A DNA stretch of 6,510 nt from a virus, in IMG/VR virus record IMGVR_UViG_3300014042_000248, positions 1 to 6,510 of that record; one strand, given 5' to 3'. This document shows, one piece after another, positions 238 through 6,510 of the stretch (position 1 is the first letter of the stretch; every line of letters begins with the position of its first letter). Position numbers and translations under genes: made by a program. Under the pieces are notes generated by a model, which searched no databases, had not been told where the DNA came from, and saw only the letters and a program-made list of their open reading frames with translations.

Positions 238-293
238 ACCGCGAAGCGGTTCGGGTTCCAGTGACACCCGAACTTTGGTGTGGTTTCCCACAC
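238..293. other. Cluster of three ssDNA hairpins between convergent gene ends (candidate complementary-strand origin and/or terminator for the minus-strand gene)
   Basis: Three hairpins: ACCGC-GAA-GCGGT (238-250); an 8-bp perfect stem gttcgggt (249-256) / acccgaac (266-273) with a 9-nt loop; and a 6-bp stem gtgtgg (278-283) / ccacac (288-293) with a 4-nt loop. Confidence 0.5.
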
Positions 294-597: not shown

Positions 598-1728
598 ATG
601 CTTATGACCTCTTTTTTCTTTGATTGGCTCACAGTAGAGCAAGATTTCGGTTTTGAATTACCATTTCTTTCTGATGTTGCTTATCAGCGTATACACGTTG
701 AGTCAGGGGAGGGGAGTTCACTAAATCAAACTCCTTTTACTCACAAGGGAAGTTTTTGCGATACCATTCTTATTAAAATTCGTGGCTCTGTTCTTAAGTT
801 TTCGGGCAATCCTTCTCGTTGGGGTCGTCTTGATAACCTTTTTGGCCTGAGTTCTGTAGATGCTTGTATATCCGTTTATAACTCTATTTGCCGCGATTTA
901 GGTTTACCTCAATTCACTCGCTGTACTCGTTTATTACCTTGCCAGACTCCTGATGCCACTCGTCAAAAATGGACTTCCGACGGTGCCATTATTAAGGAGT
1001 TACATATCACGCAAAATATTTCTGTTGGAGCTGGAAATGTTGATGACTATCTCTCTGGCCTGTCTACTCAGCGCTATCGCAATTCTATTCCCCGCCTTCA
1101 CTCTAACGGTAAATCTGTTGATTGGTTGTCGGCTCGTGGTAACGCAAATTTAATTTATCCAACTGTTTATGATAAGGCGCATGAAATTGAATTACATGCT
1201 TTGCCTAAGTTTAAAAATGTTTTTGGTGAAGAATCCGATAATTATAATTATTTGAAATCGTTAGCTGAATATTGTCGCTCTATTGGTTTGGTTCGTTTTG
1301 AGCAGAAATTGAAATCACGTTATTTACAAAAACACGACCTTAGTTATTGGGGAATTTCTGATTATTCCGTTTTAAATGATTTGCATAATGAATTTATAAA
1401 TGTTGATAAAAAATTACAGGTGACAGCTATGGATTTTGAAACTATATCTGAGCGTTTATTTAATCTTGGTATTGTTGAGACCACTCGCGCAGCCAATACT
1501 ACTGCAATTTATGCTGTTCAATGGATGCACGGCCATACTTTTGATTTCAACAAAAAGCAAGTTAAAACTCACCGCGCTAGGCTTCGTAAAATCGGTATTG
1601 ACATTGCTCAACGCTGTAATATTTCTAAATTCAGCCCTGTTTTTGTTACTGCTACCCGTGAAGTAAAACCCGTTCCCGTCCAAATCCCGTCTTGGTATCA
1701 AATGCCACGTCATTTATCTGTTGCTTAA
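598..1728 (+). CDS. Rolling-circle replication initiation protein (Ff pII / CTXphi RstA-type, Phage_CRI-like)
   Basis: 376-aa ORF. The N-terminal FDWLT motif and the segment GLVRFEQKLKSRYL closely resemble M13 pII GLVRFEARIKTRYL (from memory). It sits first in the operon, directly upstream of the gene-V homolog. The start could instead be the ATG at 604. Confidence 0.85.
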   Translation: MLMTSFFFDWLTVEQDFGFELPFLSDVAYQRIHVESGEGSSLNQTPFTHKGSFCDTILIKIRGSVLKFSGNPSRWGRLDNLFGLSSVDACISVYNSICRDLGLPQFTRCTRLLPCQTPDATRQKWTSDGAIIKELHITQNISVGAGNVDDYLSGLSTQRYRNSIPRLHSNGKSVDWLSARGNANLIYPTVYDKAHEIELHALPKFKNVFGEESDNYNYLKSLAEYCRSIGLVRFEQKLKSRYLQKHDLSYWGISDYSVLNDLHNEFINVDKKLQVTAMDFETISERLFNLGIVETTRAANTTAIYAVQWMHGHTFDFNKKQVKTHRARLRKIGIDIAQRCNISKFSPVFVTATREVKPVPVQIPSWYQMPRHLSVA

Positions 1729-2581: not shown

Positions 2582-4015
2582 ATGGTTATTCGTACTCTTA
2601 GTAATCGTGGATTGCATAAGGCGGGTTTTTTTCTAACTCTATTTTCAACTTCACTCTTTGCCTATACACCTCCAGCTACCCCTAATCTACCTCTGTTTTA
2701 CGAGTTTACAGGCGCTAACGCTGTATCAGAATCCACCGATTTTTATAACTCACAATGTGACGCTGATAATTATTCTTGGTATGGTGTCGATTGGTTCTGT
2801 GCCACTGGTGACCCTACTAATCCTATTTGCCAAGTTAAAATGGCTTATCATTCTAGTGACGTTAATAATTGTCAGTCATATATTCCGCCTGATTTGCCTG
2901 ACCCCAATTTAACTCCTGACGAATTACAAGAGGGTACAGGTAGCAATAAAAATTTAATTGAAAAACTCGAATTGATGCGTATTGCTCAATTTAATAAGCT
3001 TGTTGATGACGGTCTTTATCAAGATAAGGATTTAGCTTTATCAAAGCAGACTAATTCGCTTTTAAATTCATTAAATCATACTTTATCCTATGCTAACGAT
3101 AACCGTTCTATTGTTGACGCTATTAATCAATGGGGTGCCACTTTACAGGTTAACTCCCAAAATCTCGCTCAATCTGAACGTGAATTTTGGGCTAATCGTT
3201 TTCATCTCGAAGATTTTAATTTTGACAATCGCTTAGGCGGCATTTCTTCTCAACTTACTGAGCTTTCAGGTTTGCAATCCTCTATGCAACAACTTGTTAA
3301 TAATACTGCTGGCGGTGGTTCTGGTGGCTCAACTGATTTAACTTTGACTAATCGAATGCTTGGTAATATTGAAGAACTTTTTTATGATTTTCGCAATTAT
3401 TATGGCTATCTTGAGTCATTCGATTCATATATGAAAGGTGAGCGCTATTCTTTGCTAACTGATATAAATGATTCCATTAAAGCTTTGGGGGGTGGTGATA
3501 ATTCTGCTGTTGTAGAGCAACTTGTAGATGCAAATAGCAATTTGACTGATATTGTTGATGCGATAGGAAAGGGCGGGGATGGTTCTAACCCTGATGCTAT
3601 TTCAGAAAATGGCTGCGCTGCCTTTTCTTGTTCTTCAGATAGTCCAGAGTGTTATATTGCTCGTAAAGCTTGGGAGCGTTCTTGCGCTGCATCTAAAAAT
3701 GAAACTGATGGTCAAGGGCTTATTGATTCTTTAGTTTCATCTGTAAAAGATTATACAGAGTCGCCTGACGGTGATATTCAAAATATAGATGCGGGTGTTA
3801 TTAATACCGATTCTTTGTTGAATAAATACACTAATGACAATGGCTTTAATGCAGGCGGTCAGAAAACCTGTCCTGAGCCTTTGGCCTTAGATATTGGCGT
3901 TACTGTTTTATATTTAAATTTAACTCCAATGTGTGATTTGGCGGCGGTCATTAGTTTCTTTGTTATTGCTACTGCCATGCTTTCATCTGGTCTAGCTATT
4001 GCTAAATATTCATAG
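2582..4015 (+). CDS. Minor coat / host-adsorption protein (pIII/OrfU-like)
   Basis: Start chosen at ATG 2582, with AGGA 7 nt upstream, downstream of the terminator. Evidence: signal-like N-terminus MVIRTLSNRGLHKAGFFLTLFSTSLFA; Cys-containing N-terminal region; Gly-rich linker AGGGSGGS; Cys-rich C-terminal domain; terminal membrane anchor AAVISFFVIATAMLSSGLAIAKYS. It is the largest ORF, lying between the coat and pVI-like genes. Confidence 0.75.
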   Translation: MVIRTLSNRGLHKAGFFLTLFSTSLFAYTPPATPNLPLFYEFTGANAVSESTDFYNSQCDADNYSWYGVDWFCATGDPTNPICQVKMAYHSSDVNNCQSYIPPDLPDPNLTPDELQEGTGSNKNLIEKLELMRIAQFNKLVDDGLYQDKDLALSKQTNSLLNSLNHTLSYANDNRSIVDAINQWGATLQVNSQNLAQSEREFWANRFHLEDFNFDNRLGGISSQLTELSGLQSSMQQLVNNTAGGGSGGSTDLTLTNRMLGNIEELFYDFRNYYGYLESFDSYMKGERYSLLTDINDSIKALGGGDNSAVVEQLVDANSNLTDIVDAIGKGGDGSNPDAISENGCAAFSCSSDSPECYIARKAWERSCAASKNETDGQGLIDSLVSSVKDYTESPDGDIQNIDAGVINTDSLLNKYTNDNGFNAGGQKTCPEPLALDIGVTVLYLNLTPMCDLAAVISFFVIATAMLSSGLAIAKYS

Positions 4016-4023
4016 GTGACTAT

Positions 4024-4371
4024 ATGCCTTATTTTTTGATGTTTCTTGCATCTATTTTCCCTTTTCTATCAAGCATCGTTGCTGCAACTGCTGGCCGCAT
4101 TGCTGTAGCTATAGGTTTTGGCACTGTAACTTTCATGGGTGTTGGTCTTATTTTTGACAAGATACTTGATAAGTTAAATGCCGCTACAACTACGCTGCCG
4201 CCTCTTGTTGCTACGTTTATCCATCTTTGCGGTATTGATACCGCTATAAACATTATGATGTCTACGGGCTTTGCTTTGTTGGTTCTTAAGGGGGCGAATA
4301 GGGCTGGCAACTCTCGCCAAATTGTTTGGCGTAAGCCAGGGGATAAATCTGACGTTGATTGGGGTGCCTAA
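4024..4371 (+). CDS. Hydrophobic minor coat protein (pVI / Ace-position protein)
   Basis: 115 aa with SD AGGTGA upstream and multiple hydrophobic segments. Length and position (between the pIII-like and Zot-like genes) match Ff pVI and CTXphi Ace. Its stop overlaps the next start (TAATG). Confidence 0.7.
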   Translation: MPYFLMFLASIFPFLSSIVAATAGRIAVAIGFGTVTFMGVGLIFDKILDKLNAATTTLPPLVATFIHLCGIDTAINIMMSTGFALLVLKGANRAGNSRQIVWRKPGDKSDVDWGA

Positions 4372-5681
4372 TGATTGTTTTGAGAACGGGTAAGCCCGGT
4401 GCAAGTAAAACTTTGAATTCTTTTTCAGACCTTGTTACTCAGAATGATGGTACTCGCCCGATTTATTATCACAATGTCCGTTTAGTTATGCTTGACTATG
4501 AGGTTTCATCCACTTTTTCAGGTTGGCTCTATGGTAATTATATTCCTAGGCTTAAGAACAAGGGGGCTATCAAGCGTCTAAACAAGATCATTAAAAGAGT
4601 TCATGCTGATGATGAATTTGTTTCTTTAGAGCATGTTCCTTGGCTTCAAAGTCTTTACGAGGCCGATTCTCCTTTGTCCACTTGGCTTTTGTGGGTTAGG
4701 AAACTCTATTCGCCTAAGCAGCTTGAACGCATGGAGGAATTTATTGCTAACATGCCTCAAGAGTCTCTTACTTTTGAACACCTTAAGCAGTTTAATTTGC
4801 ATTTCACTCGGTTTGATGATGTTCGCCAGTGGTTCACGTTGCCCAAGGGTTCGATTATCTTTATTGATGAATGTCAGCAGTTCTTCCCGCCTCGGGCCAT
4901 TGGCTCTAAGGTGCCTGATTACATATCGAACTTTGAAACTCACCGTCATCATGGTTTTGATGTTCATTTAGTCACACAGGATAGGATGTTGTTGGACAAT
5001 CACGTTCGCAAGCTGGCCAATAAACATATTCACTATCATAATCCGTTTGGTGGTGAGCGCATTTCTCGTTATGAGAATTCTAAGAGTTTTGACCCTGACA
5101 ATTATTTTGATACTCAGACTTGTCAAAAATCTATGCCTAAGCGCCCTAGTAAATTCTATGGCGCTTACTTTAGTTCTGAGATGCATACCCATAAATTCAA
5201 GTTGCCAAAGATTTTCTATGTTGGTGTATTCTTGATTATTTTCTTTATTGTTGTTGTCTATATGTTTGTTACATCTGACATTATGAACCCTAGCAGGCTT
5301 TCTGATTCTTCTGATAAGAAAGCGGCTACGTCTGAGGTTAAGAAGGATTCAGAATATTCTAGAGTTGCTAAAATCAACAACACTAATAAGAATGATTCAC
5401 CTATGTTTAGGGATTACATTGCTAAGTTAACTGATGGTGTTTTTATCACAGGTTCGCTTTATAAGCGTGATACTTATGGAAAGGTATCCTTTGATTATTC
5501 TTTTGCTAAAAAATCTACTGCCGAGCCTTTTGAGCCTTCGGCTGTTGGTTTTACGGTTAATCCTATAACTAATTGTTTGGCTCGTTTGTCTTTTGATAAT
5601 TACACAACGTTTATTACCTGTGATCCTTTTGGTGATAGTTTACCTTCTGAGTCTGACCAACCTACTTCCGCCTCTATATAG
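4371..5681 (+). CDS. zot: Zot-family / pI-like phage assembly NTPase (zonula occludens toxin-like protein)
   Basis: Start taken at ATG 4371, in a TAATG overlap with the upstream gene. Evidence: Walker A GKPGASKT; Walker B IIFIDECQQFFPPR (compare Zot FIDECGRIWPPR); THRHHGFDVHLVTQD (compare Zot MHRHHGWDI and M13 pI LGWDIIFLVQD, from memory); one TM helix IFYVGVFLIIFFIVVVYMFV; then a periplasmic C-terminal domain. Confidence 0.85.
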   Translation: MIVLRTGKPGASKTLNSFSDLVTQNDGTRPIYYHNVRLVMLDYEVSSTFSGWLYGNYIPRLKNKGAIKRLNKIIKRVHADDEFVSLEHVPWLQSLYEADSPLSTWLLWVRKLYSPKQLERMEEFIANMPQESLTFEHLKQFNLHFTRFDDVRQWFTLPKGSIIFIDECQQFFPPRAIGSKVPDYISNFETHRHHGFDVHLVTQDRMLLDNHVRKLANKHIHYHNPFGGERISRYENSKSFDPDNYFDTQTCQKSMPKRPSKFYGAYFSSEMHTHKFKLPKIFYVGVFLIIFFIVVVYMFVTSDIMNPSRLSDSSDKKAATSEVKKDSEYSRVAKINNTNKNDSPMFRDYIAKLTDGVFITGSLYKRDTYGKVSFDYSFAKKSTAEPFEPSAVGFTVNPITNCLARLSFDNYTTFITCDPFGDSLPSESDQPTSASI

Positions 5682-5684
5682 CCC

Positions 5685-5730
5685 AAAAATAGAGGGGGGG
5701 AGGCAAGCGAAGCGCCCCCCCTTTATTTTT
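5685..5730 (+). terminator. Long hairpin and terminator directly after the zot-like gene (also a candidate packaging signal)
   Basis: 16-bp stem AAAAATAGAGGGGGGG (5685-5700) / CCCCCCCTTTATTTTT (5715-5730) with one G.T pair. The 14-nt loop contains GCGAAGC. There is an A tract 5' and a T tract 3'. It starts 4 nt after the stop codon. Confidence 0.7.
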
Positions 5731-5782
5731 GTTTACATTCCTTACATCACTTTTTTTCTATCCCAAATCCCTCTCACACAAA

Positions 5783-5937
5783 ACTGCGTACAATGTACTG
5801 GCGGATTATGTTGGGATTTACACCTTGGCATAATTGCGCCAGCGCCAAGGTGCGAGAGAGCGTGAAAAGGGTGGTCGAGCTTGCGAGAATCGCTTGAGCG
5901 CTATTGAGTGCGTAACATAATCCTCATTGTGCGCGGT
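5783..5937 (+). other. Candidate XerCD-dependent attachment region (attP): two inverted dif-like sites able to form a forked hairpin in + ssDNA
   Basis: Plus strand 5783-5816 reads ACTGCGTACAA/TGTACTGGCGGA/TTATGTTGGGA. The minus strand of 5910-5937 reads ACCGCGCACAA/TGAGGA/TTATGTTACGC. E. coli dif is GGTGCGCATAA/TGTATA/TTATGTTAAAT (from memory). The arms are mutually complementary in ssDNA, and no integrase gene is present. Confidence 0.55.
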
Positions 5938-6015
5938 TCACTTCACAATTAAATGGTGTAACCATTTTATCCTTTGAAATTCGTATACAAATATTTTCAT
6001 TTTTCGCTTGAAAAG

Positions 6016-6059
6016 TGTTTACAAGATTCAATCTTTTGCTATAATGAATCATGTAAACA
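6016..6059 (+). promoter_or_regulatory. Strong sigma70-type promoter embedded in a 15-nt inverted repeat (operator) driving the accessory two-gene cassette
   Basis: -35 TTTACA (6018-6023), a 16-nt spacer, and an extended -10 TGcTATAAT (6037-6045). The inverted repeat is tgtttacaagattca (6016-6030) / tgaatcatgtaaaca (6045-6059), 14/15 complementary. An inner palindrome AAGATTcAATCTT lies at 6023-6035. Confidence 0.7.
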
Positions 6060-6080
6060 GAATTCAAAAGGTACTTAATC

Positions 6081-6311
6081 ATGCAACGCTTAAATGAACT
6101 CAAATCAGCCGCTAATATCGAAGTTGAAACCGTTTTTGCTGCTGGTCACAATCGCCATTTAATCTCTTTAGATAAGGGGCTTTTCTTTTGGACTGAGGGC
6201 TTTGATACTGTTTCTTACGAACCACAAAGCCGCGCTTACGCGAATATGTACCCAGTTAATCCTGATGGTTTTGATTTTCGTGCTTGGGTATGGAGTATGT
6301 GTCATGACTAA
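6081..6311 (+). CDS. Hypothetical 76-aa acidic protein (accessory, function unknown)
   Basis: ATG with SD AAGGT 8 nt upstream, about 30 nt downstream of the strong promoter. I recognise no motif. The stop overlaps the next ORF start by 8 nt (ATGACTAA). Confidence 0.55.
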   Translation: MQRLNELKSAANIEVETVFAAGHNRHLISLDKGLFFWTEGFDTVSYEPQSRAYANMYPVNPDGFDFRAWVWSMCHD

Positions 6312-6492
6312 ATCAACACGCGGTGGAGTCCGTCAAGGTGCTGGCCGTCCTAAGTCTGAGCCTACTGTTATGGTTCGCGTTCCCCAAGGCTGTTTAGATG
6401 ATGTTCGTTCTCTTATTGAACGTTATCGCTCACTGGGAGTTGAGCCTGACGGTCAAACTGATTGGGTTGGAAAAGGGATTATTAAACCGTAG
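6304..6492 (+). CDS. Small basic putative DNA-binding protein (GRP-type basic N-terminus plus a beta-alpha element, RHH-like)
   Basis: Start chosen at ATG 6304, with GGAG 8 nt upstream and overlapping the upstream stop. It encodes 62 aa: MTKSTRGGVRQGAGRPKSEPTVMVRVPQGCLDDVRSLIERYR.. The pattern basic GRPK, then a beta strand (V.VRVP), then a helix recalls CopG-like phage regulators, but a second helix is not obvious. Confidence 0.5.
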   Translation: MTKSTRGGVRQGAGRPKSEPTVMVRVPQGCLDDVRSLIERYRSLGVEPDGQTDWVGKGIIKP

Positions 6493-6510
6493 GTTTGATG
6501 TAAGCGAAGC
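6438..6510. repeat. Right copy of the 73-bp terminal redundancy
   Basis: Exact match to 1-73 by direct reading. Confidence 0.95.

Follow-up and report, generated by a model that had tools for sequence, protein, structure and literature searches.

A probable CTX-type attachment site made of two inverted dif-like sequences in a filamentous phage genome

Two inverted dif-like sites downstream of zot

In this study we analyzed a viral DNA stretch of 6510 nt (IMG/VR record IMGVR_UViG_3300014042_000248; 'the window' below means this whole stretch) and characterized an element at 5783-5937 that is very likely a phage attachment site (attP) of the type known from the cholera-toxin phage CTXphi. The window holds a whole circular inovirus, positions 1-73 being repeated at 6438-6510, which leaves a unit of 6437 nt. 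According to Pfam and PHROG scans the recognizable genes lie on the + strand throughout. They begin with a G2P-type rolling-circle replication initiator (598..1728; PF05155, PF05144), which is 68% identical to the replication protein of E. coli phage If1 and is not of the RstA/Rep_trans type of CTXphi. Genes for a single-stranded DNA (ssDNA)-binding protein (1738-2043), the major coat protein (2299-2508), a pIII-like adsorption protein (2582-4015) and a pVI-like protein (4024-4371) follow. The final morphogenesis gene, directly upstream of the attP module, encodes the Zot/pI assembly ATPase (4371..5681; PF05707, 2.7e-22; phrog_1041 'CTXphi Zot-like', 9e-94), whose nearest relatives are found on a Shewanella morhuae contig (77% identity) and on uncultured viral contigs. 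No recombinase was found by these scans among the ten open reading frames (ORFs) of the window, small regulator ORFs being seen besides the genes named above; an earlier reading of the letters alone (the original prediction) was thus correct in stating that no integrase is encoded.

The element consists of two sequences resembling dif, the chromosome dimer-resolution site of the host, in inverted orientation and with 93 nt between them; the original prediction gave about 95 nt, and its coordinates were reproduced. Site A (attP1-like; 5783-5816, + strand) is composed of the XerC-binding arm ACTGCGTACAA (5783..5793), a 12-nt central region TGTACTGGCGGA (5794..5805) and the XerD-binding arm TTATGTTGGGA (5806..5816). 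Its XerC arm agrees at 11/11 positions with one allele of empty Shewanella dif sites, described below, and the initial TGTA of its central region equals the start of the host dif centre TGTATA. Compared with the dif of Shewanella oneidensis, the two arms match at 10/11 (XerC) and 7/11 (XerD) positions. Site B (attP2-like; 5910-5937, - strand) has the XerC arm ACCGCGCACAA (5927..5937), the 6-nt centre TGAGGA (5921..5926) and the XerD arm TTATGTTACGC (5910..5920). The 11-6-11 layout and the arm scores of 7/11 (XerC) and 8/11 (XerD) claimed for it were obtained again against E. coli dif, and 21/28 positions agree with S. oneidensis dif. In both sites the XerC arm ends in ACAA, and the ending CACAA is typical of Shewanella dif. 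We searched 5000 dinucleotide-preserving shuffles of the genome for an inverted site pair of the same grade within 200 nt. Since none of them held one, the pair is not a chance event. Single sites are expected at 0.17 (A-grade) and 0.012 (B-grade) per shuffled genome, and with far looser thresholds 4.9% of the shuffles contain a site pair. The arms of the two sites fall below the thresholds of a general repeat search because of wobbles and a bulge in their pairing.

On the + strand the two sites are predicted to anneal. Between 5783-5795 and 5925-5937 there are 11 Watson-Crick pairs, 2 T.G pairs and zero mismatches, the two wobbles joining the XerC arms on this strand only, and 5803-5812 pair with 5914-5923 (10/10 Watson-Crick). 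The + strand of the site B XerD arm thereby supplies the bottom strand of the XerD duplex, while the outer 4 nt of the site A XerD arm are partly paired and form the 'fork'. Between the two helices 7 nt (5796-5802) face 1 nt (5924) and make up the bulge of the hairpin, and the GGA of the site A spacer pairs with site B. The interior holds a hairpin of its own (5821..5852), with a stem of nine Watson-Crick pairs out of nine (5821-5829 with 5844-5852) and a 14-nt apical loop ATAATTGCGCCAGC (5830-5843), and a second structured domain (5853..5909) in which the blocks TGG(G/T)CGAG and GAATCG are conserved in alignment. The coordinates and pair counts of the two helices, the bulge and the 9-bp inner stem are as the original prediction had given them. 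Folding of the + strand at 5770-5950 with DNA parameters gave exactly the forked hairpin as the structure of lowest energy (-31.0 kcal/mol). Its z value is -2.43 and equal stability was reached by 3 of 200 shuffles, so that it exceeds the shuffled controls by a modest margin. The minus strand of the same segment does not form the hairpin (z = -0.71), because the T.G wobbles turn into A.C mismatches there.

The attP of CTXphi lies between ctxB and rstR and is made of inverted dif-like sites ~90 nt apart, attP1 with a 12-bp centre and attP2 with a centre of 5-7 bp; the (+) single strand forms a forked hairpin of ~150 nt that is recombined with dif by XerCD, and the dependence on XerCD has been established experimentally in Vibrio cholerae (PMC4246890, PMC3089051, PMC5357621). 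In the CTXphi region that we fetched, AGTGCGTATTA, TGTGGCGCGGCA and TTATGTTGAGG are followed by the loop, after which AATGCGTATTA, TACGCCA and TTATGTTACGG appear as their complement. Four further phage lineages, found via Zot similarity, carry the same module, and in an additional class the interior is shorter (46-48 nt). The modules of the window and of CTXphi align over their full length, interior included, and are 60.8% identical; the alignment of five lineages, from which the following figures are taken, has 60 invariant columns and a mean column identity of 75%. RNAalifold recovered the forked hairpin from this alignment. Standard pairs occupy 92.8% of the cells as against 31-45% when the partners are slid by 1-3 columns, changes on both sides were found in 20 of the 56 pairs, and none of 500 shuffles reached any of the observed covariation measures. 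Compensatory changes affect 6/8 pairs of the inner-hairpin stem (helix 3) and 7 pairs of helices 5-7 in the domain 5853..5909. A G.T wobble at position 8 of the XerD arm (columns 41-142) is invariant across the five lineages; as such a pair makes sense only on the + strand, it argues that the + strand is the folded form. Among nine related modules, CTXphi included, the fold shape is identical in all and the + strand is the more stable. By this alignment, the module of the window is homologous to the real CTXphi site, beyond a mere similarity of design. The homology is too patchy for BLAST and is seen only by direct alignment: megablast with the whole window returned only a 40-nt match, blastn with 5690-6080 against 50,697 phage records returned no match, and an Rfam scan of the window gave nothing at E <= 1.

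The apical loop of the inner hairpin carries a motif, yAyaAT(t)GCGCyAGC, that occurs in every CTX-type module including CTXphi (L032 647-661; L numbers are our handles for the compared loci), always on the + strand, and that is absent from VGJ-type loci. The window has the variant CATAATTGCGCCAGC and CTXphi has TACCATTGCGCCAGC; the other modules show TATAATGCGCAGC or CATAATGCGCTAGC, and the motif lies at L021 10007, L030 6197, L010 125 and 6663, and L015 3466. The inner hairpin may be a separate ssDNA signal that acts in priming, in packaging or as the target of an accessory protein.

The dif site of Shewanella and its prophages

The dif of S. oneidensis has been predicted as ACTGCGCACAA TGTATA TTATGTTAAAT (PMC2731167). 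Among the entries considered from the supplement of PMC3025954, dif begins with GCTGCGCACAA in S. baltica and with AATGCGCACAA in S. amazonensis, and the arm ending GCGCACAA is confined to Shewanella; together with the former paper these entries give the pattern xxTGCGCACAA TGTATA TTATGTTAAAT. We reached empty dif sites in Shewanella genomes via a gene adjoining the prophages described below. In eight loci from seven assemblies they read AAATCCCTCTCACACAAA ACTGCGTACAA TGTATA TTATGTTAAAT, and positions 5765-5797 of the window match the left side of these sites exactly over 33 nt (L033/L034/L035; also L038-L041 and L044). The identity extends over an 18-nt flank, the full XerC arm, whose T at position 7 is unusual, and TGTA. 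The flank copy AAATCCCTCTCACACAAA (5765..5782, + strand) lies outside the hairpin and equals the chromosome immediately left of Shewanella dif. In other strains with an identical recombinase protein (P0106; L036, L042, L043, L045) position 7 of the arm is C. Because of this 33-nt identity, which includes the T at arm position 7, the host is very probably a Shewanella of this allele group. The TGTA at 5794-5797 represents the first 4 nt of the Shewanella dif centre TGTATA, so the central region of the host fits a site A spacer that opens with the same bases, and these four bases are compatible with strand exchange at the host dif. The assignment of dif follows the published predictions and the map position, at ~47% and 57% of two complete genomes; GC skew over a 21-kb host locus is uninformative on the terminus at that scale. 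The dif centre itself varies between samples, being TGTGTA in L021 (16562-16589) and TGTATA in L022 (6641-6668). Strains with identical recombinase protein also differ in the ~12 nt that directly follow the XerD arm on its right side (L038-L043), and their arm position 7 is either T or C. The sequence right around dif is a small hotspot of variation.

The gene that led us to the empty sites encodes a tyrosine recombinase of 430-432 aa (L034 10001-11359, L015 1107-2399, L021 2031-3326; also L033 and L035-L045). It is conserved with 63-97% identity across essentially all Shewanella and is also present in Parashewanella, Oceanimonas and Gallaecimonas. The order is always response regulator, 72-aa ORF, recombinase, dif, at empty sites too, and the gene ends 35 nt before dif in the hosts that are closest; the gap exceeds 100 nt in S. 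baltica and is ~1 kb in S. psychrophila. We had considered whether the 'integrase island' upstream of the prophages in L015 and L021 belongs to another mobile element; this was rejected, since the gene is chromosomal, genus-wide and present at empty sites.

Related phages are integrated at this dif. The attP of the L021-type phage (L021 9962-10115) is 91.6% identical to window 5783-5937, although the zot genes (window 4371-5681, L021 8583-9896) share only 65% of their DNA sequence. In L021, which contains two tandem copies of this phage, and in L023, the left junction (attL) runs from the host recombinase gene and flank through ACTGCGCACAA, an 11-nt phage spacer, the XerD arm and the loop to an intact site B. 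The corresponding right junction (attR; L022, L028) consists of the right end of the phage, ACTGCGCACAA, TGTATA, TTATGTTAAAT and the fdhD side, with the same right flank as the empty sites L036/L042. The complete chromosome of Shewanella psychrophila (CP014782.1) contains a related prophage of the same arrangement: sites A and B lie at its left end, and zot is followed by a perfect dif. The first 70 nt of L010 agree at 69/70 positions with the dif-left flank of S. baltica; the XerC arm, a phage spacer of 13 nt and then a second copy come next. A different CTX-type attL was found in an isolate genome (L045 4332-4437; GCA_012843185.1), where ACTGCGCACAA, TGTGATCACAAG and TTATGTAAAAC precede a T-rich hairpin; the contig ends 141 nt past the recombinase gene. 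This sequence shows that another phage of the CTX-type class occupies dif in that strain.

In all integrated relatives (L015, L021, L022, L023, L010, L045) the junction divides site A, and site B is left whole within the prophage. The common order is host flank, XerC arm, long phage spacer, intact site B, phage genes and regenerated dif, often in tandem, and such arrays are as expected for CTX-type integration. Comparison with empty sites (L034-L037, L042) confirmed that the left and right junctions are hybrids, which is what the original prediction had suggested looking for. One further scaffold of 7.8 kb (L004, JABSRY010000094.1), labelled 'MAG: Hyphomicrobiales', was tried as evidence for a host outside Shewanella and rejected: it represents the inovirus prophage of the S. 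psychrophila type, at whose end lies a Shewanella dif, and the bin label is almost certainly wrong for this scaffold, which is probably mis-binned. Modules of this kind occur in phages with replication genes of the G2P type (window, L021), the RstA/RstB type (L029-L031) and the GPA type (L015), which points to a mobile or host-constrained cassette.

The only other occurrence of the phage itself is in one sequencing run, where its assembly is divided over two Logan contigs (L001, L002). L002 starts at 5768, i.e. 5798 minus 30, as expected with 31-mers if the assembly branches right after 5797, and 5797 is the exact point of divergence, the phage reading TGTA-C and dif TGTA-T. Likewise, GCGCACAATGTA is the end of the contig from the S. 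morhuae isolate and of the viral contig L008. These breaks show that a second sequence context sharing the XerC arm and TGTA exists in those samples; they fit a lysogen and free phage mixed with uninfected host alike. The Logan contigs break at a second short shared segment as well (L002 ends at 288 and L001 starts at 264; window 259-293). It adjoins a hairpin at 249-273, GTTCGGGT pairing with ACCCGAAC, upstream of a divergent 62-aa ORF, and could be an origin, a site common to another element in the sample, or an effect of the inverted repeat on assembly.

Proposed integration route and competing explanations

On the CTX-type explanation, site A of the packaged or rolling-circle (+) strand would anneal to the complement of site B and form a forked hairpin of ~155 nt. 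Its stem would mimic the duplex of Shewanella dif with an 11-bp XerC arm, a XerD arm of 7-10 bp and a central region whose two ends are paired and whose top strand bulges by 7 nt. Host XerC and XerD would bind this stem and the chromosomal dif; XerC would then cut after 5793 and after the XerC arm of dif and exchange one pair of strands, the exchange being stabilized by the shared TGTA. Replication would make the pseudo-Holliday junction thus formed into a prophage. The crossover between 5793 and 5794 is deduced from the attL and attR junctions of the relatives; that Shewanella XerCD catalyze the reaction, and that XerC alone exchanges strands, is presumed by analogy with CTXphi. From left to right, the predicted prophage would show the host left flank, the host XerC arm, the 12-nt phage spacer, XerD arm A, the loop, an intact site B, the regulatory, replication and morphogenesis genes with zot at the end, the phage XerC arm, the dif centre and the dif XerD arm. 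The junctions should read GGATGTTATCGGCACCCYAAATCCCTCTCACACAAAACTGCGTACAATGTACTGGCGGATTATGTTGGGA (attL) and CATCACTTTTTTTCTATCCCAAATCCCTCTCACACAAAACTGCGTACAATGTATATTATGTTAAAT (attR). The left site would be masked in duplex DNA, and a working dif would be rebuilt on the right, on which further copies could stack in tandem.

Several observations weigh against this explanation and have to be set beside it. Lysogeny at dif, originally proposed to proceed via XerCD, is supported in so far as the relatives are integrated at Shewanella dif; of the exact phage no integrated copy was found and its proteins were seen in one sequencing run only, so integration of this particular phage is presumed from its relatives. 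When viral and metagenome contigs were scanned for exact copies of the spacer/XerD arm of the window and of a conserved loop segment, no matches were obtained, and the Shewanella inovirus Dolos does not integrate. Prophage junctions alone fit single-strand and double-strand integration at site A equally. The thermodynamic signal is by itself modest. Neither XerD arm is perfect (7/11 and 8/11), and two wobbles occur in the duplex of the XerC arms; the CTXphi site is likewise imperfect. At 35 nt from Shewanella dif there is the conserved additional gene for a tyrosine recombinase, which may have a role. Finally, the agreement between the arms could partly stem from both sites copying one host dif. 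However, compensatory changes were found also where mimicry of dif imposes nothing: at the inner end of the centre, where columns 31-32 pair with 152-153, and all along the helices of the interior. The case for a hairpin is made by this covariation, by the asymmetry between the strands and by the analogy with CTXphi.

A first alternative, which we regard as improbable, is that the hairpin mainly serves another ssDNA function, such as packaging or complementary-strand origin, in a purely episomal phage whose dif-like arms are a relic. The packaging signal and minus-strand origin of the Ff phages are located after the last morphogenesis gene, and the module of the window has the same position; in addition, its interior hairpin with the conserved apical loop is under a selection that integration does not obviously need, and Dolos provides a non-integrating precedent in Shewanella. 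The identity of 33 nt with the dif-left sequence of a living host, down to a strain-level allele at arm position 7, argues instead for recent traffic through dif, and close relatives are integrated. A dual function of the hairpin is possible and would be compatible with CTX-type integration.

It is just as improbable that the duplex form of site B alone is the working attP, in the manner of VGJphi, and that site A is a by-product, as the original prediction had allowed. Site B has the canonical layout, it agrees with S. oneidensis dif at 21/28 positions, and it is oriented to the phage genes like the dif-like sites flanking a VGJ-like prophage of Vibrio litoralis (L007). Nevertheless, in every integrated relative listed above it is site A that is split, and on its XerC side site B has only TG in common with the dif centre. 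Duplex use of site B would also leave the compensatory pairing of the two sites outside the dif-mimicking positions unexplained, and family scans of the neighboring small ORFs revealed no homologue of the VGJ-type Xer activator beside the site. The V. litoralis DSM 17657 prophage itself, a more distant relative whose Zot is 47% identical, has direct dif-like sites at 4811-4838 and 12405-12433, a perfect dif and a dif-like site with a 7-nt spacer, on the strand opposite to the phage genes; this is the VGJ pattern.

Least likely of all is integration through this site that is catalyzed or assisted by the dif-adjacent 431-aa tyrosine recombinase and not by XerCD alone: the enzyme is nearly genus-wide, with a constant gene order up to dif, and is only distantly Xer-like (44 bits against a XerC cut-off of 335), but its link to the phage is one of proximity only, while the phage sites imitate XerC and XerD arms and the homologous CTXphi site depends on XerCD.

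As the phage carries 18 nt of host flank (5765..5782) along with the arm allele of the host, an integrated copy would be bracketed by perfect direct repeats of 33-38 nt. Xer exchange at the boundary of arm and spacer, or rolling-circle replication from tandem copies, cannot place host flank at this position; a crossover between attL and attR to the left of the XerC cleavage point can do so. The T at arm position 7 weakens the hairpin of the phage itself, as T.G replaces C.G. Hence the host flank hints at an additional excision route by homologous or microhomology recombination. If true, the 'irreversible' CTX-type lysogeny would be reversible and alleles of the XerC arm would be shuffled between phage and chromosome. 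It is possible, if rather doubtful, that the module does more than the attP of CTXphi in one of these ways, be it reversible lysogeny or a separate ssDNA signal in the inner hairpin.

The module is framed by further features. Just 3' of the zot stop lies a G+C-rich hairpin, GGGGGGGAGGCAAGCGAAGCGCCCCCCC (5693..5722, + strand), which we read directly, a scan having given a minus-strand reading. Homologous hairpins are located 3' of zot in L021 and L014, and it appears terminator-like, marking the end of the morphogenesis module. On the other side of attP a strong sigma-70-like promoter (6018..6045, + strand; TTTACA, 16-nt spacer, TG-TATAAT; 11/12 positions matching, with extended -10 TG) precedes two overlapping small ORFs at 6081-6311 and 6304-6492 (76 and 62 aa). 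The regulatory module that begins here would become the left end of a prophage. The divergent 62-aa ORF mentioned above (293-481, - strand; phrog_5642) is near paired operator-like repeats GTATACATGT at 523-576. For the small ORFs flanking attP, Pfam, PHROG and a further family scan matched no named family.

Comparison with known dif-using phages

The hijacking of XerCD by a single-strand hairpin has so far been worked out for the cholera-toxin phage only. Our findings suggest that its attP is a conserved and portable cassette of ~155 nt, which is used also in filamentous phages of Shewanella (Alteromonadales) and is joined to at least three types of replication module (G2P, RstA/RstB and GPA). 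The natural variation of the cassette, with its compensatory changes, conserved wobbles and loop, reveals where selection acts on the hairpin, and Shewanella might serve as a non-pathogenic and genetically tractable host for probing the rules of CTX-type integration. For genome annotation it would be useful to seek such phages at dif and in tandem arrays and to expect assembly breaks at the XerC arm. In the literature, of which our coverage was incomplete, no paper describing this module in Shewanella phages was found.

Phages of the VGJphi type use host XerCD at dif without a phage integrase, as is proposed for the phage of the window, and XerC carries out their first exchange beside a short identity in the central region, as it presumably would here. 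VGJ-type phages have a single 29-bp duplex site, integrate as duplex and retain two usable flanking sites, whereas the window has two inverted sites, the one with the 6-nt spacer never forming the junction in relatives; on this point it does not belong to the VGJ type. In addition, VGJ-type phages encode the Xer activator XafV beside attP (PMC4246890, PMC5357621). The 'CTX-II' inoviruses of Vibrio target dif, end in zot and occur without XafT or toxin genes, 95% of them in tandem arrays (PMC12715192). They are like the relatives of our phage in dif targeting, zot-terminal prophages and tandem arrays, a likeness of prophage layout; descriptions of them come from Vibrio alone, and the paper contains no analysis of a hairpin attP. 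For CUS-1phi of E. coli and Ypfphi of Yersinia pestis, attP features of direct single-strand integration have been reported (PMC3089051), and therefore CTX-type sites outside Vibrio have already been proposed. Those phages have other hosts and belong to other lineages, and we compared them by description only.

The closest counterpart is CTXphi, as the original prediction had recognized. Both phages have a 12-nt spacer in the coding-strand site and a short one in the other (5-7 nt in CTXphi, 6 nt in the window), the sites being inverted and, in CTXphi and related modules including the window, 87-93 nt apart. In both, attP follows the final core or cargo gene and precedes the regulatory module, the phage encodes no integrase, the sequences can be aligned and the same fold is predicted, including the G.T wobble at XerD-arm position 8. 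CTXphi and the relatives of our phage both form tandem prophages with dif regenerated on the right. The arms of the window fit the dif of Shewanella (ending in GCGCACAA, followed by TGTATA), whereas those of CTXphi fit V. cholerae dif1 (ending in GCGTATTA, followed by TGTATG). The backbone differs too, with a G2P/If1-like replication protein and no toxin genes in the window and RstA/RstB in CTXphi. Unlike in CTXphi, the 18 nt upstream of the XerC arm are those of the host chromosome, and our phage is known from its sequence only. In conclusion, we have characterized a clear example of the already known CTX-type exploitation of Xer recombination, confirmatory in nature and with some useful new detail.

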